DNA of 26,772 bases from a virus (taxonomy: Duplodnaviria; Heunggongvirae; Uroviricota; Caudoviricetes). Positions 1 through 26,772 of the stretch are shown piece after piece. Positions within the stretch are counted from its first letter, which is position 1, and each line of letters opens with the position of its first letter. Location of the stretch: positions 1-26,772 of IMG/VR virus record IMGVR_UViG_2778260994_000003; one strand, written 5' to 3'. A program made the translations under genes and the position numbers. The notes under the pieces are model-generated. The model was not told the DNA's origin. It worked only from the letters and a program-made list of their open reading frames with translations, and did not search any database.

Positions 1-1284
1 TTACAGACTTCTGGAAGGTTGCGCAGCTCTTACAACACGCGGTTGATCTTCCGCAGCGTCTTCCAGCGCACTTAAATCACGGTCTTTCACTTCTGGCATT
101 TTCAGCGCAGAGATTAAACCAATCACTGAATATGCCATGATCATAATGGCGATCGGATACCAGGATTCCGTCATGGTGCAGAAAATACCCGCCAGGATAG
201 GACCAAAACCGGAAGCGATAAGACCACCAATTTCTTTAGAAATGGCCATCCGGGTAAAGCGGTTTTTACAGCCGAACATTTCTGCCATGGTAATGTTTTC
301 CAGAGCAAATAATCCCAGCACCGCACAGTTATGAATCACAATCAGTGCAACCATAATGGTGCTCGGGGCATAGCTTTTATCTACAATGATAGAAAGCATT
401 GGCCATGCCAGCACAATCGCGGAGGTATTCATAATAATATACGGGATCCGGCGACCAATTTTATCGGATAACCAACCAAGGAACGGAATGGTCATAAAGC
501 CGAGAATCGAACTAATCATCAATGCATCTGTTGGAATTGCTTTGTTAAACAATAACGTCTGCACTAAATAGCCTGCAAGGAAAGTCTGAATTAACCCGGA
601 GTTACCCGCCTGACCAAAACGCAGCCCTGTTGCCAGCCAGAAGGATTTGCTCTGGAACATGCTACCAGCAGGTGCAGGTTTTGCTGTGGGTTGGTTGCTG
701 TCATTAACCTTCTCAAAGACCGGGCTTTCTTTCAGATTCATACGTAACCAGATAGCAAAGACCATCACGACAACGCTCGCCAGGAACGGTATACGCCATC
801 CCCACGCCAGCAGTTCCTCTTTACTGAGAATGAAGAACATAAAGGCCCAGATTGCCGTTGCGCTCAAGGTTCCGCAGTTAGTTCCCATAGCTACAAATGA
901 GGAGATAATTCCGCGCTTACCTTTTGGTGCATATTCCGCCAGCATCGTACCGGCACCGGAAATTTCCGCACCTGCACCCAACCCCTGAATAATACGCAGC
1001 GTCACCAGCAAGATGGGGGCAAAAACACCAATCTGTGCATAGGTCGGTAACACACCAATTAAGGTGGTACAGATCCCCATCATGGTGATGGTAATAAAGA
1101 GCACTTTTTTACGCCCTATTCTGTCGCCCATTTTGCCGAAAATAAATGCTCCGACAATACGCGCCACATAACCTGCACCGTAGGTTCCCATTGCCAAAAT
1201 TAACGCCATTGCCGTTGATGATTCAGGAAAAAATATTTCATGAAACACCAACGCTGCGCCGAGCGAATATAACTGGAAATCCAT
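1..1284 (-). CDS. ydfJ: MHS-family MFS transporter (YdfJ-like), apparently lacking its 5' end
   Basis: 427-aa ORF with MFS motifs (GKMGDRIGRKK, 12 predicted TM segments). The ORF begins MDFQLY, i.e. inside the conserved TM1 motif (E-W-F-D-F) of ProP/KgtP-type transporters, so about 25-30 N-terminal residues appear missing. Prophage tail-fibre remnants follow immediately. Symbol from remembered similarity to the E. coli Qin-flanking ydfJ. Confidence 0.75.
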   Translation of the reverse strand: MDFQLYSLGAALVFHEIFFPESSTAMALILAMGTYGAGYVARIVGAFIFGKMGDRIGRKKVLFITITMMGICTTLIGVLPTYAQIGVFAPILLVTLRIIQGLGAGAEISGAGTMLAEYAPKGKRGIISSFVAMGTNCGTLSATAIWAFMFFILSKEELLAWGWRIPFLASVVVMVFAIWLRMNLKESPVFEKVNDSNQPTAKPAPAGSMFQSKSFWLATGLRFGQAGNSGLIQTFLAGYLVQTLLFNKAIPTDALMISSILGFMTIPFLGWLSDKIGRRIPYIIMNTSAIVLAWPMLSIIVDKSYAPSTIMVALIVIHNCAVLGLFALENITMAEMFGCKNRFTRMAISKEIGGLIASGFGPILAGIFCTMTESWYPIAIMIMAYSVIGLISALKMPEVKDRDLSALEDAAEDQPRVVRAAQPSRSL

Positions 1285-1503
1285 AATTCATAGATATTTT
1301 TTACCATCCTATGGATTTTTGGGCGTTTTCTAAGTTTTTTCAGATGGTTGTATTTTTTCTAAAAACTCCTGATCTCGATTTTGCTGTTTGTCTGAGACCT
1401 TTTTATGTCCCATATATGCCCCAAGGTGCCCCATGTAAATCCAATTCAACTCAAAGCATCCCTGTTCAATATTTTTACAAGGGGCTTGCATATCAGTGTT
1501 TTT

Positions 1504-2070
1504 TTATTGCGTAACGTCAAACGCTCGGATTGAGCGTAAATCATCAAGATTATTCAGCTCTTCCTTCATCTCCCGCTGACGACGATAAATCTCGTCATTG
1601 CGATCGGCCTGTGCCCGTGCCATTACTGCCGCAAGTTCTTCCAGTTCCTGCATCGTCAGGAGGATTGGCGTATTCTCTCCATCTCCCCAAACAATTGTTT
1701 CTCTGCCAGCTCCTGATTTCGCCGCCATTACCACTGGTAAGAGGCGGGACAGCGAAACCGGACCAGCATTCCATTTGTGACCTTTCCATTCCAGCATGAA
1801 CGACATGGACTCCTGTTCCTGACGCCATACTTCGATCTCACACACTTTAGCCTCTTTTTCTGCGGCAATAAGTTCAGGCGTAACGGTAAACCGGGCTATT
1901 CCGCCCCACTTCCCGCTTTGCAGTTCCTGCCAGACCTGTTTACCCATTTCCGCAACATCATTCTCAACAGCGGTATAAGGTAGATGTACCTCCTGCCCCT
2001 CCAAAAGCACTTCACAATATACAGCACCATCCTCCAGAAACATGGCATTTCTTATATTTTTTATCTGCAT
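1504..2070 (-). CDS. Putative tail-fibre assembly/chaperone protein
   Basis: 188-aa ORF starting 7 nt after the tail-fibre fragment stop, the position where lambdoid phages carry tfa. No canonical Tfa C-terminal motif was recognised, so the function is positional inference. Confidence 0.4.
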   Translation of the reverse strand: MQIKNIRNAMFLEDGAVYCEVLLEGQEVHLPYTAVENDVAEMGKQVWQELQSGKWGGIARFTVTPELIAAEKEAKVCEIEVWRQEQESMSFMLEWKGHKWNAGPVSLSRLLPVVMAAKSGAGRETIVWGDGENTPILLTMQELEELAAVMARAQADRNDEIYRRQREMKEELNNLDDLRSIRAFDVTQ

Positions 2071-2076
2071 ACTCTG

Positions 2077-2670
2077 TCACCCGACCCGCACAAATAATCC
2101 TATATACGCTTCCTTTCCGTTGGTGGTATAAAGACCATCTCCCCCCAGAGACTGATACACTCCGGGAAATGCCGATGTATTCGTTCTGCCAATGACAAAC
2201 GTTGCCTCCCCTTTCATTGTGCCTGCTCCTGTCACGCCTCCCACTACTATTTCCACCGGCGCAAGTGCTTTTCCCGGGCATGGTTGTCCACGACTCAGGC
2301 GCATTAAAACTCCACCTTCCGCTACTCCCAAAAAAGCTGCCATAACCACACTGCCGATATCCGGTTTCGGCGAACTGATACTTCTTAAAAATTCATCCTT
2401 TGATAATTTGCTCTGAGCCTCATCCATTACCACTTTGACCGCTTTTGGGGTTGCCGCCAGTGACTCGGAAGTGCTGTTTGTCGCACTACTGAGTTGTACT
2501 ATCCCTTTCTGTGCTGTCGTTGCATTCTGTGCGGTGTATTTCCCGTTAGCCAGGTCATACGCGGCCTTAACTGCTTTTGGCGTTGCCGCCAGTGACTCGG
2601 AAGTACTGTTTGTCGCACTGCTGAGTTGTACTATCCCCTTTTTCGTCGTGCTCGCATCCTCAAGCGCCAC
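2077..2670 (-). pseudogene. Side tail-fibre gene, C-terminal fragment (stf remnant)
   Basis: Encodes two copies of the tail-fibre repeat peptide KGIVQLSSATNSTSESLAATPKAVK. It has no plausible start and its 5' end overlaps the Nu1 remnant in another frame, indicating a deletion junction near 2670-2690. Confidence 0.7.
2441..2637. repeat. Two near-identical ~65-bp copies at a 132-bp (44-codon) period inside the tail-fibre fragment
   Basis: Copy 1 about 2441..2505 and copy 2 about 2573..2637 (gcttttggSgttgccgccagtgactcggaagtRctgtttgtcgcactRctgagttgtactatccc). They encode the repeated tail-fibre peptide. Confidence 0.8.
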
Positions 2671-2900
2671 GGCGTATGCAATATCCTCTGCCGCAGTTCT
2701 TCAACTTCCCGGCGCAGCTTTTCGTTCTCAATTTCAGCATCCCTTTCGGCATACCATCTTATAACGGCGGCAGAGTCATAAAGCACCTCATTACCCTTGC
2801 CACCGCCTCGCAGAACGGGCATTCCCTGTTCCTGCCAGTTCTGAATGGTACGGATACTCGCACCGAAAATGTCAGCCAGCTGCTTTTTGTTGACTTCCAT
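2631..2900 (-). pseudogene. Terminase small subunit Nu1, N-terminal ~71 codons only (nohA/nohD-type remnant)
   Basis: N-terminus MEVNKKQLADIFGASIRTIQNWQEQGMPVLRGGGKGNEVLYDSAAV matches phage lambda Nu1 as I recall it. After about residue 71 the frame diverges into unrelated sequence and stops. Confidence 0.85.
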
Positions 2901-3077
2901 TGTTCATTCCACGGCCAAAAACAGAGAAAGGAAACGACAGAGGCCCAAAAGCTCGTTTTCAGCACCTGTCGTTTCCTTTCTTTTTAGGGGGTGTTTTAAA
3001 TAAAAACATGAAGTTACGGCGAAGAAGAACGGAAACGCCTTAAGCCGGAAAATTTTCATAAATAGCGAAAACCCGCG

Positions 3078-3089
3078 AGGTCGCCGCCC
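3078..3089 (-). other. cosN cohesive-end sequence (GGGCGGCGACCT on the minus strand) with flanking lambda-like cos region
   Basis: The minus strand reads CCGATCCGACAGGTTACG-GGGCGGCGACCTCGCGGGTTTTCGCTATTTATGAAAATTTTCCGG, which matches the lambda right-end/left-end junction as remembered. The cosB-like region lies between 2901 and 3077, upstream of the Nu1 remnant. Confidence 0.75.
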
Positions 3090-3288
3090 CGTAACCTGTC
3101 GGATCGCCGGAAAGGACCCGCAAAATGATAATAATTATCATCTACATGTCACAACGTGCATCTACGCCATCAAACCACGTCAAATAATCAATTATGACGC
3201 AGGTATCGTATTAATTGATCTGCATCAACTTAACGTAAAAACAACTTCAGACAATACAAATCAGCGACACTGAATACGGGGCAACCTC

Positions 3289-3483
3289 ATGTCAACTAAG
3301 AACAGAACCCGCAGAACAACAACCCGCAACATCCGCTTTCCTAACCAAATGATTGAACAAATTAACATCGCTCTTGAGCAAAAAGGGTCTGGGAATTTCT
3401 CAGCCTGGGTCATTGAAGCCTGCCGTCGGAGACTAACGTCAGAAAAGAGAGCATATACATCAATCCAAAGTGATGATGAATAA
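3289..3483 (+). CDS. Small prophage protein, YlcI/YnfO-like (DUF3950-type)
   Basis: 64-aa basic ORF between the cos/Nu1 remnant and bor, the same position ylcI occupies in DLP12. Family assignment is from memory only. Confidence 0.5.
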   Translation: MSTKNRTRRTTTRNIRFPNQMIEQINIALEQKGSGNFSAWVIEACRRRLTSEKRAYTSIQSDDE

Positions 3484-3843
3484 ACATCCCGGTTTCTTCC
3501 ACCATCGCACCGGAAAAGCGACTATGAGGGTAACCCTGCGTCTGTCAGCACAGTAAAACCCGGTGTGCATCGTTTTTGATTATTCCCGCACACTCACGCA
3601 GAAGGAATTCCCCGTCGGGCTACGGTCATGGTTAATGCGGGAATACGGCGACGATACAGCGCAGCTAAAAGGGTAATGGACAGATAGAGCGGTTTATTTC
3701 ATTCCACAGGATTCTGAGTGCCCCCCCTCCTCCAATAGGCTGAGCATCCACCTATATAGTTTTAATTTTCATCAATCCATTTAACTATCGTTTAATTGTT
3801 GTCACATAGGATTCTGCCGTTTTTAACAATGCAGGATAATAAG

Positions 3844-4137
3844 ATGAAAAAAATGTTGTTTTCTGCCGCTCTGGCAATGCTTATTACAGGATGTGCTCAA
3901 CAGACGTTTACTGTTGGAAACAAACCGACAGCAGTAACACCAAAGGAAACCATCACCCATCATTTCTTCGTTTCGGGAATTGGACAGGAGAAAACTGTTG
4001 ATGCAGCCAAAATTTGTGGCGGCGCAGAAAATGTTGTTAAAACAGAAACCCAGCAAACATTCGTAAATGGATTTCTCGGTTTTATTACTTTAGGCATTTA
4101 TACTCCGCTGGAAGCGCGTGTGTATTGCTCACAATAA
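3844..4137 (+). CDS. bor: Bor/Iss-family outer-membrane lipoprotein
   Basis: MKKMLFSAALAMLITGCAQQTFTV...TPLEARVYCSQ with lipobox LITGC, near-identical to lambda Bor as recalled. AGGA motif upstream of the ATG at 3844. The track ORF beginning at 3796 is an N-terminal over-extension. Confidence 0.9.
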   Translation: MKKMLFSAALAMLITGCAQQTFTVGNKPTAVTPKETITHHFFVSGIGQEKTVDAAKICGGAENVVKTETQQTFVNGFLGFITLGIYTPLEARVYCSQ

Positions 4138-4309
4138 CTGCATGAGTTGCCCATCAAACGGGCAACTCTTTCTACTTTGTTCCTCCCCCCCCGGAAACGG
4201 CGGAAGTAAGAAATTATGTCATCGAATGATCACAAACATAGAATTTCATGCTTTCCGGACGCAAGTGACCCCTTCATTTTTCAGCAAAATATTCTGCTCT
4301 TACAGGCGA

Positions 4310-4492
4310 TCAATTCTGCATACACTGCCGAACACCGTCGACAATTTCACAGACCTGAGAAGCCGTATCGAAAAGCTGGCGCGCTTTATCCAGGCTGACG
4401 CATCCCACCAAGAAAAAAGGCACCAGTATCGCTACCAGTGCCCATTTCGCCGCCGTTCGCGGCATTCTGTGTGTCCAGTGTTTTCGCGTCAT
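4310..4492 (-). CDS. Small predicted lipoprotein (lipobox LVGC), function unknown
   Basis: 60-aa ORF with a signal-peptide-like N-terminus (KWALVAILVPFFLVGC). Its start is coupled (TGATATG) to an upstream 36-aa single-TM ORF at about 4497..4607 that has a GAGG Shine-Dalgarno. Confidence 0.4.
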   Translation of the reverse strand: MTRKHWTHRMPRTAAKWALVAILVPFFLVGCVSLDKARQLFDTASQVCEIVDGVRQCMQN

Positions 4493-4703
4493 ATCACCAC
4501 CAACGCACAGCCCAAATCAGAACAGCGACCGCCACAAGGCGAATTGCAAAGGCCGCAGCCCTTGTCAAATCAAGGCTCGCGGGAGTTTCCACTTCAATAC
4601 CTTTCATAATGGACAACCTCAAAAAGAATCTTTTATACTTTCCCACGAGGATTTTCTCCGTACTCACTACTCACAATTTCCTCTTTGACGTGAAAACTAA
4701 AAA

Positions 4704-4728
4704 CCCCGGACTGTTCCAGCAGCCGGGG
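4704..4728. terminator. Bidirectional intrinsic terminator-like hairpin downstream of the endolysin
   Basis: CCCCGG-13 nt-CCGGGG stem with T-runs following it on both strands. Confidence 0.55.
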
Positions 4729-4826
4729 TTTTTGCTATCTGATGCTGTACCCCTTACTTTCGCTCATCGTAACCCCAGAAAAGAGCCTGCGTGAGTTGAG
4801 GGTGTTCAGCACTTCAGCGTCAGTTT

Positions 4827-5372
4827 TTAAACTGCTACGCGCTCTTTCATCCAGCCGTAGACAAACGACTCGTTGGCCTCGCGTTTTTCTGCCAGCTCCA
4901 GATAGCGGTCGCCCTGCGTGCAATTCAGCGCCTTCAGCATCACCAGTTCGCCGTCTTTGCCGCGTTTTTGCAGATAAGTCCGTAGTGCATTAATCGTGCG
5001 GGGGCCGATACGCCCGTCTGCGTCCATATCCGGGAACAATTTGCCTTGCAGGTTGAAAACGTTCAGCCAGCGTTGGAGCATTTTCGATGCTACGGACGGC
5101 CCCATATTCACACCGGTATCACACAACTCTGCAGCAATATCAGAGGATAATGCGGCCACCTGATCAAAGCGTGGTCCGAACCAGTAATCCGCCTCAAGGA
5201 TTTCCAGTGCCTGTTCGCGTGTCAGGTCACGCATATCGCCCTGATATCCGTGAGCGCGGGCGACTTTTTCCGTAATACCCCATTTTGTCGGTCCGCCTTT
5301 ATCATCCGGGTGATTGACGTAACCGCCCTCTTTTCCCAGAACTTCGTCAAAAATTTCATCTTTCGACTTCAT
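4827..5372 (-). CDS. Endolysin, GH108-type muramidase with C-terminal peptidoglycan-binding domain
   Basis: Motif EGGYVNHPDDKGGPTKWGIT near the N-terminus and DADGRIGPRT near the C-terminus. The ATG at 5372 is coupled to the upstream stop (TGATATG). The track start at 5393 is probably an over-extension. Confidence 0.8.
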   Translation of the reverse strand: MKSKDEIFDEVLGKEGGYVNHPDDKGGPTKWGITEKVARAHGYQGDMRDLTREQALEILEADYWFGPRFDQVAALSSDIAAELCDTGVNMGPSVASKMLQRWLNVFNLQGKLFPDMDADGRIGPRTINALRTYLQKRGKDGELVMLKALNCTQGDRYLELAEKREANESFVYGWMKERVAV

Positions 5373-6781: not shown

Positions 6782-6856
<75 letters not shown>

Positions 6857-6859
6857 ATA

Positions 6860-6935
<76 letters not shown>

Positions 6936-8750: not shown

Positions 8751-10034
8751 ATGACAGCAGAAATAGCCGTATTTAACAAGACCGCAGTAGCTTTAGCCGC
8801 AGATTCAGCTGTAACGATTTCTGGAGGCGGCAAACATAAAATCTATAATGGCGCTGAAAAGCTTTTCGCTCTCACTAAACATCATCCTGTAGGTTTGATG
8901 GTATATGGAACTGGTGATCTCTGCACAGCTCCATGGGAGCTTATCATTAAGGCTTATAGAAAGGATTTAGGCTCTAAATGTTTTGACTCTTTGGAGGAAT
9001 ATGCTGAGGATTTCTTCAATTATCTACAGTCAGCTAAATCAATCATCACACCAGGTATGCGTGAGGCTCATCTTTATCACTTCCTGAGCGAGATTGTATT
9101 CAGCATGCTTGTTGATGCTTTTTCTGAAGGTCTCGAACCAACATATCTCGTTAACTTCGATAAGAATCAATTTGTTACAGACCTCACGAATTATTGCAAC
9201 GATCTCCTTACAAAATTATCTGATATTAATTACTTTGATGGTTTTACTCCGGATGATGAACAAGCAGCCCAAACCTATGCTTCATCAATTACCCAACGCA
9301 TCATTGCTCAAAAGTTTAGTGACTTTGATTCAATATCCATAACTCCACAGTTGACAAAAGCAGTTAGTGATGTATTGGCAGCTATGATATGCAAGCAAAG
9401 TGATATTGGTTCCGTCTCTGGGATTGTGATTGCAGGTTATGGCGATAAAGACTATTACCCTAAAGTATTATCATATGAAGTTTGTGGCTTCTTTAATGAT
9501 AAAATAAGGAAAACCACAGATGCTGACAAGTGCTGCATCACTCCTAATTGCGGCGTGACTCCCTTTGCGCAAGAGGATGAAGTTTCTGCTTTCATGCAAG
9601 GAGCTAGTTCACATCTTATCCAAAATCTTCATGCTGAGTATCAACGTTCTATCGGCGATTTACTTGATGGTATTGATTCAGTAATCACAGATTTGGTGCC
9701 CACTTCAGATATCGAAGGAGCCAAGGATGCTATAGTTGATGTAGTGCGCAGAACTGTTTCCGATTGCAAGGGGCGTATTGATAGCTTTGTCCGAGAAAAC
9801 TATGTTGACAAAGTCGTAAATATGATCGAGTTTTTACCCAAGCAAGATTTAGCTTATATGGCTGAATCATTAGTAAATTTAACCGCTTTCAAGCGCAAGG
9901 TCTCCGATGATACTGAAACAGTGGGAGGCCCCATAGATGTTGCAATCATTTCTAAAGCTGATGGTTTTATCTGGGTTAAACGTAAGCACTATTTTGCAAA
10001 AGAACTGAACCATCACTACTTTTCACGGTCATAG
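8751..10034 (+). CDS. HslV/proteasome-beta-like N-terminal-nucleophile hydrolase homologue (427 aa), function unknown
   Basis: After Met removal the protein starts T1-A-E-I-A-V and carries D17 (VALAADS), lysines at 27/29/36 and a VGLMVYGTGDLCTAPWELI segment. These align gaplessly with remembered HslV [21 protein letters not shown]...VIAGFAGGTADAFTLFELF. Low GC, and on the strand opposite the late operon. Confidence 0.5.
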   Translation: MTAEIAVFNKTAVALAADSAVTISGGGKHKIYNGAEKLFALTKHHPVGLMVYGTGDLCTAPWELIIKAYRKDLGSKCFDSLEEYAEDFFNYLQSAKSIITPGMREAHLYHFLSEIVFSMLVDAFSEGLEPTYLVNFDKNQFVTDLTNYCNDLLTKLSDINYFDGFTPDDEQAAQTYASSITQRIIAQKFSDFDSISITPQLTKAVSDVLAAMICKQSDIGSVSGIVIAGYGDKDYYPKVLSYEVCGFFNDKIRKTTDADKCCITPNCGVTPFAQEDEVSAFMQGASSHLIQNLHAEYQRSIGDLLDGIDSVITDLVPTSDIEGAKDAIVDVVRRTVSDCKGRIDSFVRENYVDKVVNMIEFLPKQDLAYMAESLVNLTAFKRKVSDDTETVGGPIDVAIISKADGFIWVKRKHYFAKELNHHYFSRS

Positions 10035-12617: not shown

Positions 12618-12828
12618 AGCCTGCTTCTCCTTGACCTTTCGGTCCGTAAGAGGCTAATCTCTATGTGTCGCATAGATATGGCCTCAGATTAATGTTAAGC
12701 GTCTTGCAGGACGCGTAATGTTAACTGGGGCTTTTCTCTATCTGCCTTTTGGTGTTCATGCCTGAGACAGATAGCCTCAAGCACCCGCAGCCATTCTACT
12801 TAACTCCCGTTACCTCGCCAATATAAAA

Positions 12829-12918
12829 TCAATCAGAAAGGCGATCCATAAGAACAACAGCAAGACAATAAATTGCCATTACAGCTGCAATAGCCAGCGC
12901 ACATTTGAGAACCAGCAC
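12829..12918 (-). CDS. Candidate 29-aa hydrophobic peptide gene
   Basis: GTG start with a perfect AGGAGG 5 nt upstream. Peptide MLVLKCALAIAAVMAIYCLAVVLMDRLSD (one TM helix). Not in the ORF track because of its length. Confidence 0.3.
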   Translation of the reverse strand: MLVLKCALAIAAVMAIYCLAVVLMDRLSD

Positions 12919-13148
12919 GACAACCTCCTGTATTGGACGTACACCAGTCCTGATAAATATGAGGCTGTCTCATCATTGATGAGATACAACTATTGGGTAT
13001 AGTTTCTGTGATTTTGTTCTGTAGAAATGGAACACAACAACCAGTCACCACCAGTACTTCTTTAAATACGCCAAGTCCGACGCAAGCTAACCTTCTAGTC
13101 CGCTTTGAGCGAAATGCGGACATGCGGGAGCATGGTTTATGTATGAAA

Positions 13149-13985
13149 CTAATGATGATAAATACCATCGTCTAAAGGGGGACCTTCAGCCGTAACCCCC
13201 GTGATACTACTTGGCGGTTCAAAGATGGCCCGACCAAATATTGCATCAAACTCTGCTTTTGTGACTGATAAGTATTGCAAGATGAGCTCTAGCAGCTCTC
13301 TGTACGTATCACAATGCCATTCAATGTGAGGACATATTCGGGAGAGAACTCTGTTCTTAAAATCATCCAGATTATTTGGGACTTCCAGCAAGTTACCAGT
13401 GTTTAATGCTTTCGACATAAACTTGTAATTGAGCATAGAGAGAACCACTACTGATACACCTTTCTCTTGCCTTAACTGATCGAACTTCTCTTGTGCTTGA
13501 AGGCTTAGCTTGGCGTATTCGCGATCTCGTTTAGAGTTGATTGGTTCGACGTACTGAAGCGGTTCGTCTGCAGCATCACCGATACGTGGACAAAAGTATC
13601 TATTCCACCAAGCCTCAAAATACCTTTTTTGGAACTCAAGGTATGTCATCCCAATAATATTGGTGTTTTGAGTGTACTGTTTAGCACCCTGCTGAAGCCC
13701 GTGCTTTGAAATAATAAATCCAATATTAGCCCCGGTTTCATGCATTACCGTGGTGAACGAATGGACCACCGTCTGTGGTATAGAACTACCCCAGTTTTTG
13801 CATTCCACAATGTATCTGATTTTGTCCACGCTCCTAACATCTGTAGCAAGAACATCCACATTCACCGAGCCACGCGGGGTTTCTAAATCGACCTCGACTT
13901 CTGCAAACAAGCCAACATTACGGAATATACGTTGGACCCCTGTCTGGAGGTCTTGCCAGTTTTCTGGTAGTGGGTCATCGATCAC
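13149..13985 (-). CDS. Mrr-like (PD-(D/E)xK restriction-endonuclease fold) N-terminal domain protein with unknown C-terminal domain
   Basis: VDVLATD...IRYIVECKNWGSS...GFIISKHG pattern (D...E-C-K) typical of Mrr/restriction-endonuclease catalytic cores. GTG start with AGGAAAAG upstream. GC content lower than the host-like genes. Confidence 0.55.
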   Translation of the reverse strand: MIDDPLPENWQDLQTGVQRIFRNVGLFAEVEVDLETPRGSVNVDVLATDVRSVDKIRYIVECKNWGSSIPQTVVHSFTTVMHETGANIGFIISKHGLQQGAKQYTQNTNIIGMTYLEFQKRYFEAWWNRYFCPRIGDAADEPLQYVEPINSKRDREYAKLSLQAQEKFDQLRQEKGVSVVVLSMLNYKFMSKALNTGNLLEVPNNLDDFKNRVLSRICPHIEWHCDTYRELLELILQYLSVTKAEFDAIFGRAIFEPPSSITGVTAEGPPLDDGIYHH

Positions 13986-14279
13986 TTCTGCTTTTCCTAT
14001 GCACTATCCGCATGCTTTTAAGACTACTTGAAGACACAAACGTCGTCATCCACTAAAAGGTTCAAATTTGAGATAAAAGTTCGTTTCTGGTACGAAGCGG
14101 ATCGTTTGAAGAACCGTGTGATCTGCTAAGAGCGAGGAGTGGACGTTCTCAAGGGATTGCTTACATCGAGGATGTATGAATCAACGGGGTGCAGGTCACA
14201 ATATATGCTATCACTTGGTTGTTGAAACGAATGCCAAAGCCTGTGACGAGCGAGGAGTAGACTTTGGCACAAAAAAAAT

Positions 14280-15233
14280 TTAAGTGTCCGATGACTTTGT
14301 TTCAGCCGCTTTATCCTCAACCAATACCCAATCTCCGGAGCTAACCTTTGTCATAAGACAAAATGGAAAGTTGTTAAAAAAATGTTCAATATCACTTGAG
14401 GGTATTTTCTCAATTTTATTTAAACAACCATCAGCTATTTGTAGGGAAATCATTTCTCTTGTAATTTTCATAAATTGATCAACATCAGATAACAACCATG
14501 TTTCATGATGAGCACCAAACAATTTGTGCGGTATATCATCAAGAATAAGATTGTCTAAATCATGTGATTTATCTTTGTTTAGCTCAAGAAGTACAAAATC
14601 AAAAAAATCAAAAAGATATGAATAGAGAAGATGAGTATAAAAGGTAAAATAGTAATCAGCAAAATTAATATTGTTATTGAATCTATTTGAATACATCATA
14701 TGAGGTTGAATCAGATCGTTTAGATCAGAGTCATATGCTTGGAAACAAATCTTTGTTTTAATATTATCATCGTTGACATAATAAGGATTTACTGTTATCC
14801 CTCCATGAACTATCTTATTTCTTATTTTATTAAAGTCCTTATACCATTTTAAATTCAAATCTGGAAATTCCTGTGCATATTGCTGGAAATGATTTTCAAG
14901 GTAATCATATTTGTTGCCATTTTTTTTAGTTGGAAAAATTAATTTATCAGCTATCTGATATGCAATATCCCATATCGTGCTGATTTTATAATAGCAATAC
15001 TCAATAGCACTAATGCTGACAATTGATGTTGCATCATGTTTTCTGATGAACTCAGCATCTTTTTGAATTTTATTAATGTAAGTAATCATATAAAACAGTT
15101 TCTTGAAATGAGTTTTTAAATTTTTTAAAAGAAACTGAAGTTTTATGTCTTCCAGTGTATCTTCTTCATACTTATTTAAGTACATAATAATTTTATAAAG
15201 TGGACTGCCAACTCTTTTTGCATGTACATCCAT
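14280..15233 (-). CDS. AT-rich hypothetical protein with a HEPN-like R-N-x3-H motif (Abi-like candidate)
   Basis: 317 aa at roughly 30% GC. Contains KIRNKIVHGG (R-x4-H with a polar residue after the Arg). GGAG RBS and its own TTGACT-17-TTAAAT promoter. Confidence 0.45.
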   Translation of the reverse strand: MDVHAKRVGSPLYKIIMYLNKYEEDTLEDIKLQFLLKNLKTHFKKLFYMITYINKIQKDAEFIRKHDATSIVSISAIEYCYYKISTIWDIAYQIADKLIFPTKKNGNKYDYLENHFQQYAQEFPDLNLKWYKDFNKIRNKIVHGGITVNPYYVNDDNIKTKICFQAYDSDLNDLIQPHMMYSNRFNNNINFADYYFTFYTHLLYSYLFDFFDFVLLELNKDKSHDLDNLILDDIPHKLFGAHHETWLLSDVDQFMKITREMISLQIADGCLNKIEKIPSSDIEHFFNNFPFCLMTKVSSGDWVLVEDKAAETKSSDT

Positions 15234-15273
15234 TATTTACTCCAATAAATCAATGCGAACATTTTAATTGAAA

Positions 15274-15302
15274 ATTTAATGCCAAAAACTTTAGTTAGTC
15301 AA
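15274..15302 (-). promoter_or_regulatory. Candidate sigma70 promoter for the HEPN-like gene
   Basis: On the minus strand: TTGACT (15297..15302), 17-nt spacer, TTAAAT (15274..15279), about 40 nt upstream of the ATG at 15233. Confidence 0.4.
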
Positions 15303-15402
15303 TAATTTATTCAAACGTCCGCTACTGGCACAAAGCAGACGCCCACTCTCACGCGAATGCTTTGCCCTTGACTTGCCAACAACCGTATCGCTTGCTCCGC
15401 AA

Positions 15403-16695
15403 CTATGGTTTTTTATTAGAATCTTCGCCACTAAATAAATTATAATAAATTGATTTTATTAGATATCTGTCAGAATCTATATGGTCAGCACGAGTAGCAT
15501 GCTCTAATGTTTCAAATGCTAGGGTTTGTGCGGCTTCAGCAAAAATTCCAGGCCAACCCTTACTCAGCATCGACAGTCCTTTAAGGACCCTTATCTGAAT
15601 TTCCCTCATACTGGCACCATCGCGCGCAACAGGTGAGAAAAAGTCTTCAAGTAGATCGTTATTCTGAAGTGGTGCAACATGTACAGAAGGATATTTCACT
15701 TCTATTTCATCAGATTTATTCTGCGCGTAAGCGGAAAGTATACGTACACCTCTGCCAATGACATCAATGGCGGTTCCAGGATCGTTCACTGCGGGGGAAA
15801 GGGCTCGGCAGGCTATTTCGGCCATGACGCTAAGACAAAATCGGGGGTCCTGAGCAAATGAACGTACATCCGAGACAATAATCGTCTCAAGTAAATCGGT
15901 GCTGATTGATGACTCCTGGCCCTGACTCAGGTACAAAACTGGCGTGGACGGATGTATGAAACTGCCCGGCTGCGCCACGAGGTATACATGACGGGGATCA
16001 TTGGTCAGCAGCTTGCTGAGTTTCACCATATCAACATATTCAACATAGCCAATCTTTTTCGGATAAACTGCAACCGTTCCTTTCGGCTGTTCATTGTTCT
16101 CAAGCCATGGATATCCGCCGAGACAGGGATTTCTTGCTCTCGCAATAAATGTTTCGATGGCCGCCTGTTCTACTTTTGCCGTTGTCTCACCAACCCTCCC
16201 CAGAGAGGTCAAATGCTGTATCCAGCGAAGCAATGTGATGAGGATTAAGGCAATGACAACCAGTGTTACAATGAATAAAATGACTCTCCCCCTTTCTCCA
16301 TAAGCTCCCATATTGAGGGCAATAATCCCTACCAGACTGAAGAGAAAAGAACCGATGAAGGTGGCCAGTACATTTTGTGTGGTGACGTCTTCAACAACTA
16401 AACGAGTAGCTCTGGGAGTCACATTAGTAGTGGCTGAACCGTAGGCTGTGACCATGATGCTCAGCGAAAATGTGGTCACTGCCAGCATACTCGATGCCAG
16501 TATGTTCAGAATGTTATCGACTGCTTCCGCACCAACCTTCACGGAAACCGACTCAGGTATCATTGATTTAAAAAGAATTGATAAAAGGGCCGTTATTATT
16601 GCGACAATTGCGAATAACGTTGCCCTGAACCATAGTTTTTTAAATGTCTGCTTCAGCATCCATTTCCAGCGTGAAATCATTCTGCATTCCCTCAT
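15403..16695 (-). CDS. Membrane protein, DUF2254-like (N-terminal TM helices plus soluble domain)
   Basis: 430-aa ORF with 4-5 hydrophobic helices in the first ~150 residues. Family name from memory. An alternative start at 16680 has a better RBS (GAGGGA). Confidence 0.55.
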   Translation of the reverse strand: MRECRMISRWKWMLKQTFKKLWFRATLFAIVAIITALLSILFKSMIPESVSVKVGAEAVDNILNILASSMLAVTTFSLSIMVTAYGSATTNVTPRATRLVVEDVTTQNVLATFIGSFLFSLVGIIALNMGAYGERGRVILFIVTLVVIALILITLLRWIQHLTSLGRVGETTAKVEQAAIETFIARARNPCLGGYPWLENNEQPKGTVAVYPKKIGYVEYVDMVKLSKLLTNDPRHVYLVAQPGSFIHPSTPVLYLSQGQESSISTDLLETIIVSDVRSFAQDPRFCLSVMAEIACRALSPAVNDPGTAIDVIGRGVRILSAYAQNKSDEIEVKYPSVHVAPLQNNDLLEDFFSPVARDGASMREIQIRVLKGLSMLSKGWPGIFAEAAQTLAFETLEHATRADHIDSDRYLIKSIYYNLFSGEDSNKKP

Positions 16696-16715
16696 ATTGC
16701 AGCCGGGATAAATAA

Positions 16716-16736
16716 ATGCCGCCTCTGTGGCGGCAT
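16716..16736 (-). terminator. Hairpin with T-rich tail 8 nt after the betT-like stop
   Basis: ATGCCGCC-TCTGT-GGCGGCAT perfect inverted repeat followed on the minus strand by TTATTTAT. Confidence 0.5.
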
Positions 16737-16743
16737 GTTGCTG

Positions 16744-25205: not shown

Positions 25206-25457
25206 ATGAGCGAAGTAATCATGATTGTCTCTCCCGGTAAATGGGTATCCGAAGAACAGCTAATTGCGCTGAAAGGAATAAAAAAGGGAACGCTAAAAAA
25301 AGCCAGGGAAAAATCGTTTATGGAAGGAAGGGAATATAAGCATGTAGCCCATGACGGTATGCCATGGGATAACAGCCCATGCTTTTACAACCTGGAAGAA
25401 ATTGATCGCTGGATTGAACGTCAGGCATCAGCAAGACCAAGACGTCATCTTACTTGA
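25206..25457 (+). CDS. Excisionase-like protein
   Basis: 83 aa immediately upstream of int, with W...NSPCFYNLEEIDRWIE resembling small phage excisionases. Confidence 0.5.
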   Translation: MSEVIMIVSPGKWVSEEQLIALKGIKKGTLKKAREKSFMEGREYKHVAHDGMPWDNSPCFYNLEEIDRWIERQASARPRRHLT

Positions 25458-25491
25458 CTAAAAACAATACTAACCAATGAGAGAAGCTAAA

Positions 25492-26772
25492 ATGAAATAT
25501 CCGACAGGCGTGGAAAACCATGGAGGGAAATTACGTATCTGGTTTGTTTATAAAGGTGTAAGAGTCAGGGAAAATCTGGGGGTTCCTGACACGACAAAAA
25601 ACAGGCGCATTGCAGGTGAGCTGCGCGCCTCTGTTTGTTATGCAATAAAAACCGGCGTTTTCGACTATGCAAAACAGTTTCCCTCCTCACACAATCTGGA
25701 AAAATTTGGTGAGGCCCGACAAGATTTAACCATAAAGGAACTGGCTGAAAAATTTCTGGCACTGAAAGAAACGGAAGTCGCAAAAACGTCACTCAACACG
25801 TACCGTGCCGTCATCAAAAATATTATGAGCATAATCGGTGAAAAAAATCTTGCATCGTCGATTAATAAAGAAAAATTGCTGGCGGTACGTAAAGAGTTAC
25901 TTACTGGATACCAGATCCCCAAAAGTAATTATATTGTTACGCAACCGGGGAGATCGGCTGTCACCGTAAATAATTACATGACAAATCTTTACGCCGTGTT
26001 CCAGTTTGGTGTTGATAACGGTTACCTGGCAGATAATCCGTTTAAGGGGATCTCGCCATTAAAGGAATCAAGAACCATTCCTGATCCTCTTTCACGGGAG
26101 GAATTTATCCGTCTTATCGACGCCTGCAGAAATCAGCAGGCCAAAAATTTATGGTGTGTTTCTGTTTATACAGGCATTCGCCCTGGTGAACTGTGTGCGC
26201 TTGGGTGGGAGGACATAGATCTGAAAAATGGAACAATGATGATCAGGAGAAATTTAGCAAAAGATCGTTTTACGGTACCGAAAACACAGGCTGGTACCAA
26301 TCGGGTAATTCACCTTATCAAGCCTGCAATCGACGCTCTCAGGAGTCAGATGACACTAACGAGGCTGAGCAAAGAACATATTATTGACGTTCACCTCAGA
26401 GAGTTCGGCAGAACAGAAAAACAAAAATGCACCTTTGTTTTTCAACCTGAAGTGTCAGCGAGAGTAAAAAATTATGGTGACCATTTTACCGTTGACTCAA
26501 TAAGGCAGATGTGGGACGCAGCGATAAAGCGCGCTGGCCTCCGCCACCGCAAATCATATCAGTCGAGACATACTTATGCCTGCTGGTCGCTGACAGCCGG
26601 TGCCAACCCGGCATTCATAGCAAACCAGATGGGACATGCAGATGCGCAAATGGTGTTTCAGGTATACGGGAAATGGATGTCTGAAAACAATAATGCACAG
26701 GTAGCCCTGCTAAATACACAGCTAAGCGAGTTTGCCCCAACCATGCCCCAAAACGAGGTGGCGCAAAATTAA
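25492..26772 (+). CDS. Tyrosine integrase (IntR/IntQ-like)
   Basis: N-terminus KYPTGVENHGGKLRIWF and C-terminus HRKSYQSRHTYACWSLTAGANPAFIANQMGH...VYGKWM match remembered Rac IntR. Probable start at 25492; the track ORF begins at 25477. Confidence 0.9.
   Translation: MKYPTGVENHGGKLRIWFVYKGVRVRENLGVPDTTKNRRIAGELRASVCYAIKTGVFDYAKQFPSSHNLEKFGEARQDLTIKELAEKFLALKETEVAKTSLNTYRAVIKNIMSIIGEKNLASSINKEKLLAVRKELLTGYQIPKSNYIVTQPGRSAVTVNNYMTNLYAVFQFGVDNGYLADNPFKGISPLKESRTIPDPLSREEFIRLIDACRNQQAKNLWCVSVYTGIRPGELCALGWEDIDLKNGTMMIRRNLAKDRFTVPKTQAGTNRVIHLIKPAIDALRSQMTLTRLSKEHIIDVHLREFGRTEKQKCTFVFQPEVSARVKNYGDHFTVDSIRQMWDAAIKRAGLRHRKSYQSRHTYACWSLTAGANPAFIANQMGHADAQMVFQVYGKWMSENNNAQVALLNTQLSEFAPTMPQNEVAQN

Follow-up and report, generated by a model that had tools for sequence, protein, structure and literature searches.

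A lambda-type cos site at the edge of a 20.5-kb deletion in a defective lambdoid prophage at the Qin site of Escherichia coli

The window (the whole stretch of viral DNA analysed here, 26,772 nucleotides) carries a defective lambdoid prophage of about 25.5 kb, located at the Qin site (ydfJ/rspB) of E. coli. The gene order is lambdoid (int-xis...cI-cro-rep...Q-lysis-cos-Nu1, at a known attachment site), and the genes retained include int, xis, an S24-type (SOS-type) repressor, cro, a CII-like protein, a full-length replication initiator, Q and the lysis genes, among them holins and a GH108 endolysin. No TerL, portal, capsid or tail gene was found in the window (ORF list and domain annotation), indicating that the element is unable to package itself; the loss of the terminase and structural genes had already been proposed in a first-pass annotation made from the letters alone, and it was confirmed. 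The replication module consists of an initiator with a DnaD-like C-terminal part; a distinct gene for a DnaC/P-like loader is lacking, and cargo takes the place of the nin region. Consequently, autonomous replication of the element is uncertain.

The ydfJ end of the prophage is marked by the attachment-site core GAAATCCATAA (1276..1286), which is present at both K-12 Qin boundaries and occurs only once within the window; the site and the core are common to the element, K-12 Qin, ETEC-2265, H3 and MB06231. A second copy is predicted approximately 38 bp past the window end, based on the 11-bp direct repeat located 38 bp beyond the int stop codon in ETEC-2265, and these positions give the element a length of about 25,534 bp. 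Both int (25477-26772, plus strand; Pfam Arm-DNA-bind_2 and Phage_integrase) and xis (25206-25457, plus strand; Pfam DUF1233 excisionase), needed for any excision ahead of packaging, are full-length ORFs, as in ETEC-2265 and MB06231. At the ydfJ end, the last prophage gene before the attachment site encodes a DUF4376 protein in the position of a tail-fibre-assembly gene (1504..2070, minus strand; Pfam PF14301), and the same gene is found in ETEC-2265, H3 and MB06231.

A lambda-type cos site is encoded on the minus strand of the window, and its cosQ, cosN, R3, R2 and R1 subsites are all identical to those of lambda. Pairwise alignment to NC_001416 was collinear: lambda 48098, across the cos junction, to nucleotide 403 corresponds to window positions 3494 to 2688. 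The cosQ subsite (GGGTCCT, 3113..3119, minus strand), which we take to be lambda 48473-48479 after Wieczorek & Feiss 2001, is separated from cosN without any indel; it is described in the literature as a 7-bp subsite acting in packaging termination. The cosN nicking site CGGGGCGGCGACCTCG (3076..3091, minus strand; 16 bp as defined in PMC9026076) is an exact match that occurs only once in the window (chance expectation 0.01 even with two mismatches allowed), and it includes the 12-nt cohesive end GGGCGGCGACCT at 3078-3089; the resemblance of this 12-mer and its flanks to lambda, noted in the first-pass annotation, is real. The interval first given for the site, 2631-3089, does cover the cosB side, but ends at base 1 of the cohesive end; the upstream edge of cosN (2 bp in its 16-bp definition, 5 bp in the 22-bp symmetric one, at 3090-3094) falls outside it, as does the whole of cosQ.

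The I2 spacer between cosN and cosB (lambda bp 18-50; 3040..3072, minus strand) has a single substitution, T46C at 3044, and an unchanged length; its critical bp 30-35 are those of lambda, and the 42-47 segment is replaceable without a major effect on yield (Feiss-lab literature). R3 AGGCGTTTCCGTTCTT (lambda bp 50-65; 3025..3040, minus strand), the critical TerS binding site of cosB, is identical to lambda, including the contact bases 55-63 (defined in PMC9026076), and is placed at the lambda distance from cosN, with no indel. A cluster of substitutions is found in the I1 region between R3 and R2 (2990..3020, minus strand), which harbours the IHF site and an intrinsic bend: four positions differ (lambda 71, 73, 80 and 97), and the A/T tract is preserved. 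Through A80C, one candidate IHF core loses a conserved T and goes from one to two mismatches, and the other candidate is unaffected; this change may weaken the IHF site in I1. IHF is accessory (30% yield in its absence; Feiss-lab literature), and the complete-looking prophage of E. coli MB06231 carries the same I1 variant. The remaining TerS binding sites are the inverted R2 (16-mer CTGTCGTTTCCTTTCT, 2966..2981, plus strand), identical to lambda 109-124, and the accessory R1 (16-mer, 2925..2940, minus strand), identical to lambda 151-166; the spacing between them is 1 bp shorter than in lambda, due to a deletion at lambda 138 common to the 10 natural relatives examined (10/10), isolated phages included.

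Overall, there are 11 differences compared to lambda within nucleotides 46-176, all of them in spacers and in the accessory IHF region, and none in cosQ, cosN, R1-R3 or bp 30-35 of I2. The minimal functional cosmid cos (lambda 48442-178) corresponds to window positions 2913-3150. Judged by its sequence, the cos site is intact and has lambda specificity by every criterion of the Feiss-lab literature. The first-pass reading of an intact cos site holds for cosQ, cosN and the R sites; the IHF site, with the four I1 substitutions around it, may be weakened.

Beyond cosB lies a truncated Nu1 gene (Nu1'; 2631..2900, minus strand; ORF list, Pfam, PDB), whose product of 89 amino acids comprises residues 1-71 of the TerS DNA-binding domain, with one substitution (K48R), followed by 18 out-of-frame residues (RILHTPWRLRMRARRKRG). 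The first part, whose survival over some 71 codons had been correctly anticipated, matches positions 1-71 of the 164 of Pfam Phage_Nu1 (PF07471, E = 4e-43), residues 1-68 of the solved Nu1 DNA-binding domain (PDB 1J9I) and 6HN7_B; the 18-residue tail is unrelated to Nu1, very basic, and ends at a stop codon. A functional gpNu1 has an N-terminal DNA-binding wHTH, a central oligomerisation region and a C-terminal TerL-binding domain (literature), and the last two are missing from Nu1'.

Nu1' abuts the 3' remnant of a side-tail-fibre gene (stf'; 2077..2692, minus strand; Pfam Phage_fiber_2 repeats, E = 3e-41), which is 99.9% identical to the tail-fibre gene of ETEC-2265. The two are joined at a 5-bp microhomology, CTGCC (2688..2692), where the matches to ETEC-2265 and MB06231 overlap and where codon 71 of Nu1 meets the 3' part of stf. 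The first-pass annotation had described a deletion that fused the Nu1 reading frame to the end of the tail-fibre gene: the junction exists, but the fusion is not in frame. Nu1 continues for 18 unrelated codons before the stop, and the Nu1' ORF (2631-2900) shares 40 nt with the tail-fibre ORF (2077-2670), each reading them in its own frame. The sequence lost extends from codon 72 of Nu1 through most of stf, and amounts to 20,535 bp compared to E. coli MB06231, and to 23,252 bp compared to ETEC-2265, which has an extra IS66.

These features make it probable that the cos-Nu1' stub is the edge of a single, recent illegitimate deletion of 20.5 kb in a lambda-like prophage of about 46 kb, that the cos site left there is unselected while being apparently complete as a lambda-specificity signal, and that the element behaves as a defective prophage, not as a dedicated satellite. 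One 20,535-bp microhomology deletion in a prophage of about 46 kb at ydfJ/rspB would have produced the present element, and cos would owe its survival to a breakpoint that happened to lie 213 nt into Nu1, not to selection. The 438 bp comprising cos and the 5' end of Nu1 are 100% identical to the complete-looking 46-kb prophage present at the same site in E. coli MB06231; there are no differences between this prophage and the window over 2688-4312, and the deletion flanks are 99.85-100% identical to the intact relative. ETEC-2265 had been considered as the closest intact relative: 12 of the 16 SNPs between it and the window lie in 2706-3076, ending at cosN, a cluster that was read as a recombinant cosB-Nu1 patch in the window. 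This was rejected, since the identity with MB06231 over 2688-4312 indicates that the SNP patch belongs to the ETEC-2265 lineage.

The exact Nu1' protein was found in only three contigs and five samples (exact-protein look-up), and these contigs are 99.96-100% identical to the window. None of the 5,426 complete E. coli genomes has the exact junction, the junction 36-mer had no match in the GTDB representative genomes, and the junction 28-mer had none in the IMG/VR viral contigs or the JGI metagenome contigs; consequently, the viral and metagenome collections offer no virome evidence for packaging, and none for spread. An independent and different deletion removed cos in the sister lineage E. 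coli H3. On these comparisons the deletion is evidently recent, clonal and confined to few isolates, and nothing indicates that cos was retained by selection. A lambda-type cos is present in 4,592 of the 5,426 complete E. coli genomes (85%), and a cos-Nu1-A locus, a possible supply of terminase, in 62% of them; being almost universal in the species, cos by itself should not be taken as evidence of a satellite lifestyle in annotation. Cos and Nu1 adjoining a tail remnant are also found in K-12 Qin, in DLP12 and in many other junction types. The anatomy of the element is ordinary, like that of the K-12 cryptic prophages Qin and DLP12, and it does not constitute a new kind of phage satellite.

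Packaging of the element by a helper is physically plausible. The terminase of a co-resident or superinfecting phage with lambda or N15 cosB specificity should bind R3, R2 and R1 and nick cosN. In the integrated state, translocation would start at the cosB end, cross Nu1' and stf', pass the attachment site and enter host DNA at ydfJ, ydfI and beyond, moving away from the prophage body; as the integrated element has no second cos, no mature particle would be formed, and the main effect of the double-strand break at cos would be to promote recombination with the phage that enters. In the literature, a cos terminase completes packaging only at a second cos, and lateral transduction is not carried out by cos phages (PMC8575938, PMC12829572). 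If, upon SOS induction, Int and Xis excised a 25.5-kb circle and this formed concatemers, cutting at every second cos would give a dimer of about 51 kb, which would fit the lambda head (capacity of 38-52 kb), and the element could be transferred as a helper-dependent defective phage, a behaviour classical for defective lambdoid prophages. The dimer (51.07 kb) is 105% of the lambda length, near the upper limit. The size of the element (25.5 kb, 53% of lambda) was considered as a decisive objection to packaging and then dropped, given that cos replicons below unit length are packaged as multimers: a 25-kb cos plasmid was packaged in vitro as a 50-kb dimer (PMC9764419), and lambda transfers any plasmid to which its cos has been added (PMC6739421). 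The helper terminase, on the other hand, might be disturbed by the Nu1' fragment.

The alternative that survives best, possible as the chief significance of the site although we hold it to be doubtful, is that the retained cos works mainly as a recombination hotspot and gene reservoir: the terminase of an infecting phage would cut it, and the Q-lysis-bor and tail-fibre segments would be exchanged, as in the lambda hybrids of the qin/qsr' type. Recombinants between lambda and DLP12 are 100-fold more frequent than those with Qin or Rac, 10 of the 19 sequenced lambda x DLP12 junctions directly adjoin cos, and the hybrids are viable (PMC3945230). The SNP cluster at 2706-3076 compared to ETEC-2265 marks a mosaic boundary at cos, but the patch is on the terminase-protected cosB side, opposite to what the cited model predicts. 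Moreover, recombination of this kind would be a consequence and not a designed function, and is compatible with the deletion remnant.

It is unlikely that the element leads the life of a cos-type satellite, with lambdoid helpers mobilising it regularly and cos maintained by this lifestyle. Satellite-like behaviour was suggested in the first-pass annotation. In its favour are a cos that looks intact; the excision, immunity, replication-initiator and lysis genes kept; a dimer that fits the lambda head; the terminase that a cos-Nu1-A locus could provide in the majority of the genomes (the 62% above); and the defective O157 prophages, which are packaged in trans. Against this, the hallmarks of such satellites are lacking: cosB is of the helper type, with R sites identical to those of the helper, and neither an Rpp nor a gene for capsid size or helper interference was found, while the full lambdoid immunity, late-regulation and lysis set is retained. 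No Rpp-like ORF was detected among the annotated genes of the window, where the only wHTH match to RppC is the Nu1 fragment itself (E = 0.0065). Some five near-identical isolates carry the deletion, all at one chromosomal site, which argues for vertical descent rather than spread; the junction is missing from the viral and metagenome collections, and the sister lineage H3 lost cos. The satellite behaviour is consequently not sustained.

Very unlikely, in turn, is a cos that is inactive despite its looks, the I1 substitutions or the 1-bp change between R2 and R1 blocking productive terminase assembly. The conserved T lost through A80C and the 11 differences compared to lambda in nucleotides 46-176 would speak for it, but the identical sequence is present in the complete-looking MB06231 prophage, the 1-bp deletion is shared by all the natural relatives examined, including isolated phages, and the elements affected are either dispensable (IHF), replaceable (42-47) or accessory (R1). 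Finally, we give hardly any credit to Nu1' as the functional part (a free TerS DNA-binding domain acting on cosB, or forming heterodimers with the helper TerS, as a decoy/anti-phage factor or a nascent Rpp-like packaging manipulator), for although the whole dimeric wHTH domain is kept while the oligomerisation and TerL-binding parts are gone, TerS 1-98 gives soluble dimers and RppC works by heterodimerising with that domain (literature), and weak homology links Nu1' to RppC (E = 0.0065) and PADLOC mad1, a deletion that shifted the frame set both its truncation point and its 18-residue tail by accident, no more than a handful of isolates have the protein, and its expression would come only from the late operon after induction. 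The match to mad1 had also raised the possibility of a MADS defence system, which was discarded: apart from the shared wHTH, only a generic methyltransferase gave a match, and the rest of the mad genes are absent.

Under the preferred reading, a remnant left by deletion, the element is one further documented case, in which the 20,535-bp microhomology deletion could be mapped exactly and an intact sister prophage is at hand to compare it with. If correct, it illustrates how lambdoid prophages decay into Qin/DLP12-like remnants with a usable packaging signal, and little else changes. A helper-dependent 51-kb dimer could carry the cargo of the element (a BCCT transporter, DUF2254, an Mrr-like nuclease and Bor/Iss) between strains, and the chromosomal cos is a likely recombination hotspot, from which phages entering the cell would acquire lysis and tail-fibre modules; dimer transfer and the cos hotspot are already established for other elements. 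Were Nu1' an Rpp-like manipulator, it would indicate one route from truncated terminase small subunits to the Rpp proteins of PICIs.

Among the known systems, the nohA-stfQ-tfaQ region of K-12 Qin resembles the element in location (ydfJ on one side, rspB on the other, the same core and the same orientation), in gene order (ynfO/ylcI, cos, the Nu1 homologue, a side-tail-fibre remnant and a gene of the tail-fibre-assembly type) and in the loss of every head and tail gene. The Qin breakpoint is near the end of Nu1 (nohA, 189 amino acids), compared to codon 71 in the element; Qin has no functional int (intQ is a pseudogene), dicA/dicC immunity, other cargo and a length of 20.5 kb, whereas the element keeps int, xis, the S24 repressor and the replication initiator in 25.5 kb. 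DLP12 (nohD-aaaD'-tfaD), the source of the lambda qsr' hybrids, shares the block of lysis genes, bor, ylcI, cos and Nu1, with tail-fibre-assembly remnants directly after it; over the cos region DLP12 and lambda are about 98% identical, and experiments have shown that the two can exchange it. In DLP12, unlike the element, Nu1 (nohD) is full length and A survives as a stub; this prophage is integrated at argU.

The defective prophages of O157 Sakai are also terminase-defective lambdoid prophages: for Sp4 (nu1::IS), which is packaged, the enzyme at work is probably the Sp14 terminase, acting through a near-identical cos. Prophages of this type have a cos matching the one in a co-resident phage, and rely on other prophages to be packaged and, in some cases, transferred (PMC2669165). 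Sp4 keeps most of the morphogenetic genes in a genome of near unit length, whereas the element, known from sequence alone, has lost the whole module and is half that length, so that only multimers would fill a head. The E. coli cos-type PICIs (EcCICFT073 and relatives) are likewise integrated, without capsid genes, and have lambda-like cosQ and cosN with a dependence on helper TerS and TerL, which for the element is predicted. In contrast, PICIs have their own cosB, recognised only by the Rpp-TerS heterocomplex, and they are induced by specific helpers, block the packaging of the helper, possess neither lysis genes nor lambdoid immunity, measure about 10-15 kb, and use alpA regulation and pri-rep replication; the element measures 25.5 kb and has helper-identical R sites in cosB, a replication initiator of the lambdoid kind and a full set of lambdoid regulatory and lysis genes. 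The general principle is that of cosmids, where any replicon with a lambda cos is packaged by the helper terminase, those below unit length as multimers, and of lambda-dgal, a defective transducing phage that is also a cos replicon packaged by the helper terminase. Cosmids and lambda-dgal are products of the laboratory or of aberrant excision, whereas the element is a natural deletion derivative within the chromosome.

The prophage lies in lambda-map orientation on the minus strand of the window, and window 3494 to 2688 aligned collinearly with lambda (NC_001416) from nt 48098, across the cohesive-end junction, to nt 403. Following the subsite definitions of Feiss and colleagues, cosQ (3113-3119), the 16-bp cosN (3076-3091; PMC9026076) with its 12-nt cohesive end (3078-3089), R3 (3025-3040) and R1 (2925-2940), all on the minus strand, as well as the inverted R2 (2966-2981), were identical to lambda, with no indels among cosQ, cosN and R3 in the alignment. 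The cosN sequence occurs once in the window, with 0.01 matches expected by chance. The 11 differences from lambda nt 46-176 fall in spacers only; T46C lies within the replaceable segment 42-47 of I2, the I1 (IHF) region carries four substitutions, and the R2-R1 spacer is 1 bp shorter than in lambda, a deletion common to 10/10 natural relatives aligned, isolated phages included. Previous work defined R3 as bp 50-65, contacted at bp 55-63 (PMC9026076); Feiss and colleagues described a common 16-bp sequence in R2 and R1, a critical cosN-to-cosB spacing, an I2 (bp 18-50) in which only bp 30-35 are critical, an accessory role for IHF (30% yield without it) and a minimal cosmid cos of lambda 48442-178. 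The intact cos proposed in the first-pass annotation is borne out by this alignment, and the packaging signal is shown to be intact at the sequence level. The IHF site is the less secure part: A80C may weaken its core if the true core is the affected one of two candidates.

The original cos observation was largely correct, its coordinates and reading frame needing correction. The truncated terminase small subunit (TerS) gene, Nu1' (2631-2900, minus strand), encodes Nu1 residues 1-71, with the single change K48R, followed by 18 unrelated basic residues and a stop. It spans the entire solved DNA-binding domain (1J9I, residues 1-68) and lacks the oligomerisation and TerL-binding parts of TerS. 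The tail-fibre remnant ORF (stf', 2077-2670) is in a different frame, so the supposed in-frame fusion is a joining of DNA and not of reading frames. The segments matching intact relatives share 2688-2692 (CTGCC), which makes this a 5-bp microhomology junction. Two near-identical direct repeats of ~60 bp in the remnant (about 2445-2510 and about 2575-2640) correspond to Phage_fiber_2 repeats and account for ambiguous BLAST placements in strain H3. A free TerS DNA-binding domain might, speculatively, interfere with a helper terminase. Residues 1-55 of the domain also hit the PADLOC profile for mad1, from the MADS defence system (E = 4e-12), which suggests that mad1 is a wHTH protein of the TerS/Nu1 type; the window holds no other mad genes.

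The element is a lambdoid prophage at the site of the K-12 cryptic prophage Qin, with ydfJ' at 1-1284 and, in relatives, int adjoining rspB on the other side. The 11-bp attachment core GAAATCCATAA (1276-1286) recurs 38 bp past the int stop in the related prophage of E. coli ETEC-2265 and at both Qin ends; with the second copy taken from relatives, the element measures ~25,534 bp. It carries int, xis and exonuclease genes; an S24-type repressor, cro and a CII-like YdaT protein; a full-length replication initiator (phrog_3729) and a Ren-like protein; DUF968, RusA, Q, a DNA methyltransferase and two tRNAs; two holins, a GH108 endolysin, Bor and YlcI; and next cos, Nu1', stf' and a DUF4376 protein. 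Gene annotation found no terminase large subunit (TerL), portal, capsid or tail genes in the window, confirming the earlier statement that these were deleted and showing that the element is unable to make particles.

The cargo occupies the nin-region position (12800-18750): an Mrr_cat-like nuclease (13149-13985), a 317-aa ORF without family match or known function (14280-15233), a DUF2254 membrane protein (15403-16695) and a BCCT transporter (16744-18747). The slot beside hokD/DUF2254 differs in each relative, holding ParA and two hypotheticals in ETEC-2265 and a 447-aa hypothetical in H3; MB06231 has an ATP-dependent nuclease at a comparable position (replication module to hokD), without the DUF2254/BCCT cargo. 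This slot looks like a variable hotspot, possibly for defence. A 427-aa ORF (8751-10034, plus strand) runs antisense to the late operon in the interval separating Q from the methyltransferase, where Stx phages carry stx. It is kept in ETEC-2265 and H3; its sole match is phrog_5990 (function not known), with no Pfam or PADLOC match. Genes for tRNA-Gly(tcc) and tRNA-Thr(tgt) (6782-6935, minus strand), between the methyltransferase and holins, are kept in ETEC-2265, H3 and MB06231. From bor to the endolysin (4140-4830), the L014 gene calls give two tiny ORFs only (37 and 51 aa), and no Rz/Rz1-type spanin was recognised there.

At the Qin site, E. coli MB06231 carries a complete-looking prophage of ~46 kb, in which Nu1, A, portal and onwards through J, lom and stf are uninterrupted. 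Its cos and Nu1 5' end (438 bp) match the window at 100% identity, with 0 differences across window 2688-4312; compared with this prophage, the window is short of exactly 20,535 bp. ETEC-2265 and seven similar ETEC genomes have the same prophage with IS66 within gene A; 12 of the 16 differences that separate ETEC-2265 from the window between 2688 and 6925 lie together in the cosB-Nu1 5' segment (2706-3076) and end at cosN, which marks a mosaic boundary at cos belonging to the ETEC-2265 lineage. The exact Nu1' protein was found in three contigs from five samples only (one being NCBI assembly GCA_002460775.1), all 99.96-100% identical to the window, and the junction was not found in GTDB representative genomes, IMG/VR, JGI metagenomes or 5,426 complete E. 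coli genomes. The element is thereby shown to be a recent deletion derivative. In H3 (NZ_CP010167.1, 3123-3522 of L013) the tail-fibre remnant is joined to a 5' stub of the endolysin gene; this deletion, which arose independently in the same prophage lineage, took cos, Nu1, bor and ylcI, and the int end is missing too. Retention of cos is therefore not constant in the lineage, and is best explained by the deletion having happened to end there.

A lambda-type cos with the Nu1 5' end is present in 4,592/5,426 complete E. coli genomes (median two copies), with the 5' part of gene A also attached somewhere in 3,363 of the 5,426. The remaining genomes have a range of truncated junctions (Nu1|tail fibre, Nu1|J, A'|tfa or cos alone). 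Counting Nu1|'phage tail protein' as well, at least five kinds of junction set cos-Nu1, either without A or followed by an A stub, directly against tail genes; A'|tfa is the arrangement of the K-12 prophage DLP12, and ~1,240 genomes carry lambda-type cos in truncated contexts only.

From established lambda biology, a trans-acting terminase with lambda (or N15) specificity is expected to bind R3, R2 and R1 and nick cosN. It would keep to the cosB-containing end and translocate from there, so packaging from the integrated site would run toward lower window coordinates, away from the prophage body, through Nu1', stf', the attachment site, ydfJ, ydfI and beyond. Without a second cos, a cos terminase cannot complete packaging, and lateral transduction is not a property of cos phages (PMC8575938, PMC12829572). 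The likely outcome in situ would be a double-strand break stimulating recombination with an incoming phage, as documented for DLP12 (PMC3945230). For the element itself to be transferred, it would have to be induced, excised by Int/Xis and joined into concatemers; cleavage at alternate cos sites would then yield 51.07 kb, inside the 38-52 kb capacity. A 25-kb cos plasmid is packaged as a 50-kb dimer (PMC9764419), lambda transfers any plasmid given lambda cos (PMC6739421), and trans-packaging via a shared cos was reported for the terminase-defective lambdoid prophage Sp4 of O157 (PMC2669165).

The satellite lifestyle suggested in the first-pass annotation is not supported, except in the weak sense of helper packaging being open to any defective lambdoid prophage that bears a cos. 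In E. coli cos PICIs (phage-inducible chromosomal islands), cosQ and cosN are lambda-like but cosB differs, and is read by an Rpp-TerS heterocomplex that also blocks helper packaging; the cosB of the element is helper-identical, and no Rpp was found among its annotated genes, the sole RppC similarity being the Nu1 wHTH itself (E = 0.0065). PICIs lack lysis genes, whereas this element appears to have complete lambdoid modules for immunity, Q and lysis. As in K-12 Qin (nohA-stfQ) and DLP12 (nohD-aaaD'-tfaD), cos and Nu1 sit beside tail-fibre remnants. Judged by its gene and site content, the element does not fit a PICI; it fits a defective lambdoid prophage of the Qin/DLP12 type, and is an ordinary addition to this well-known kind.
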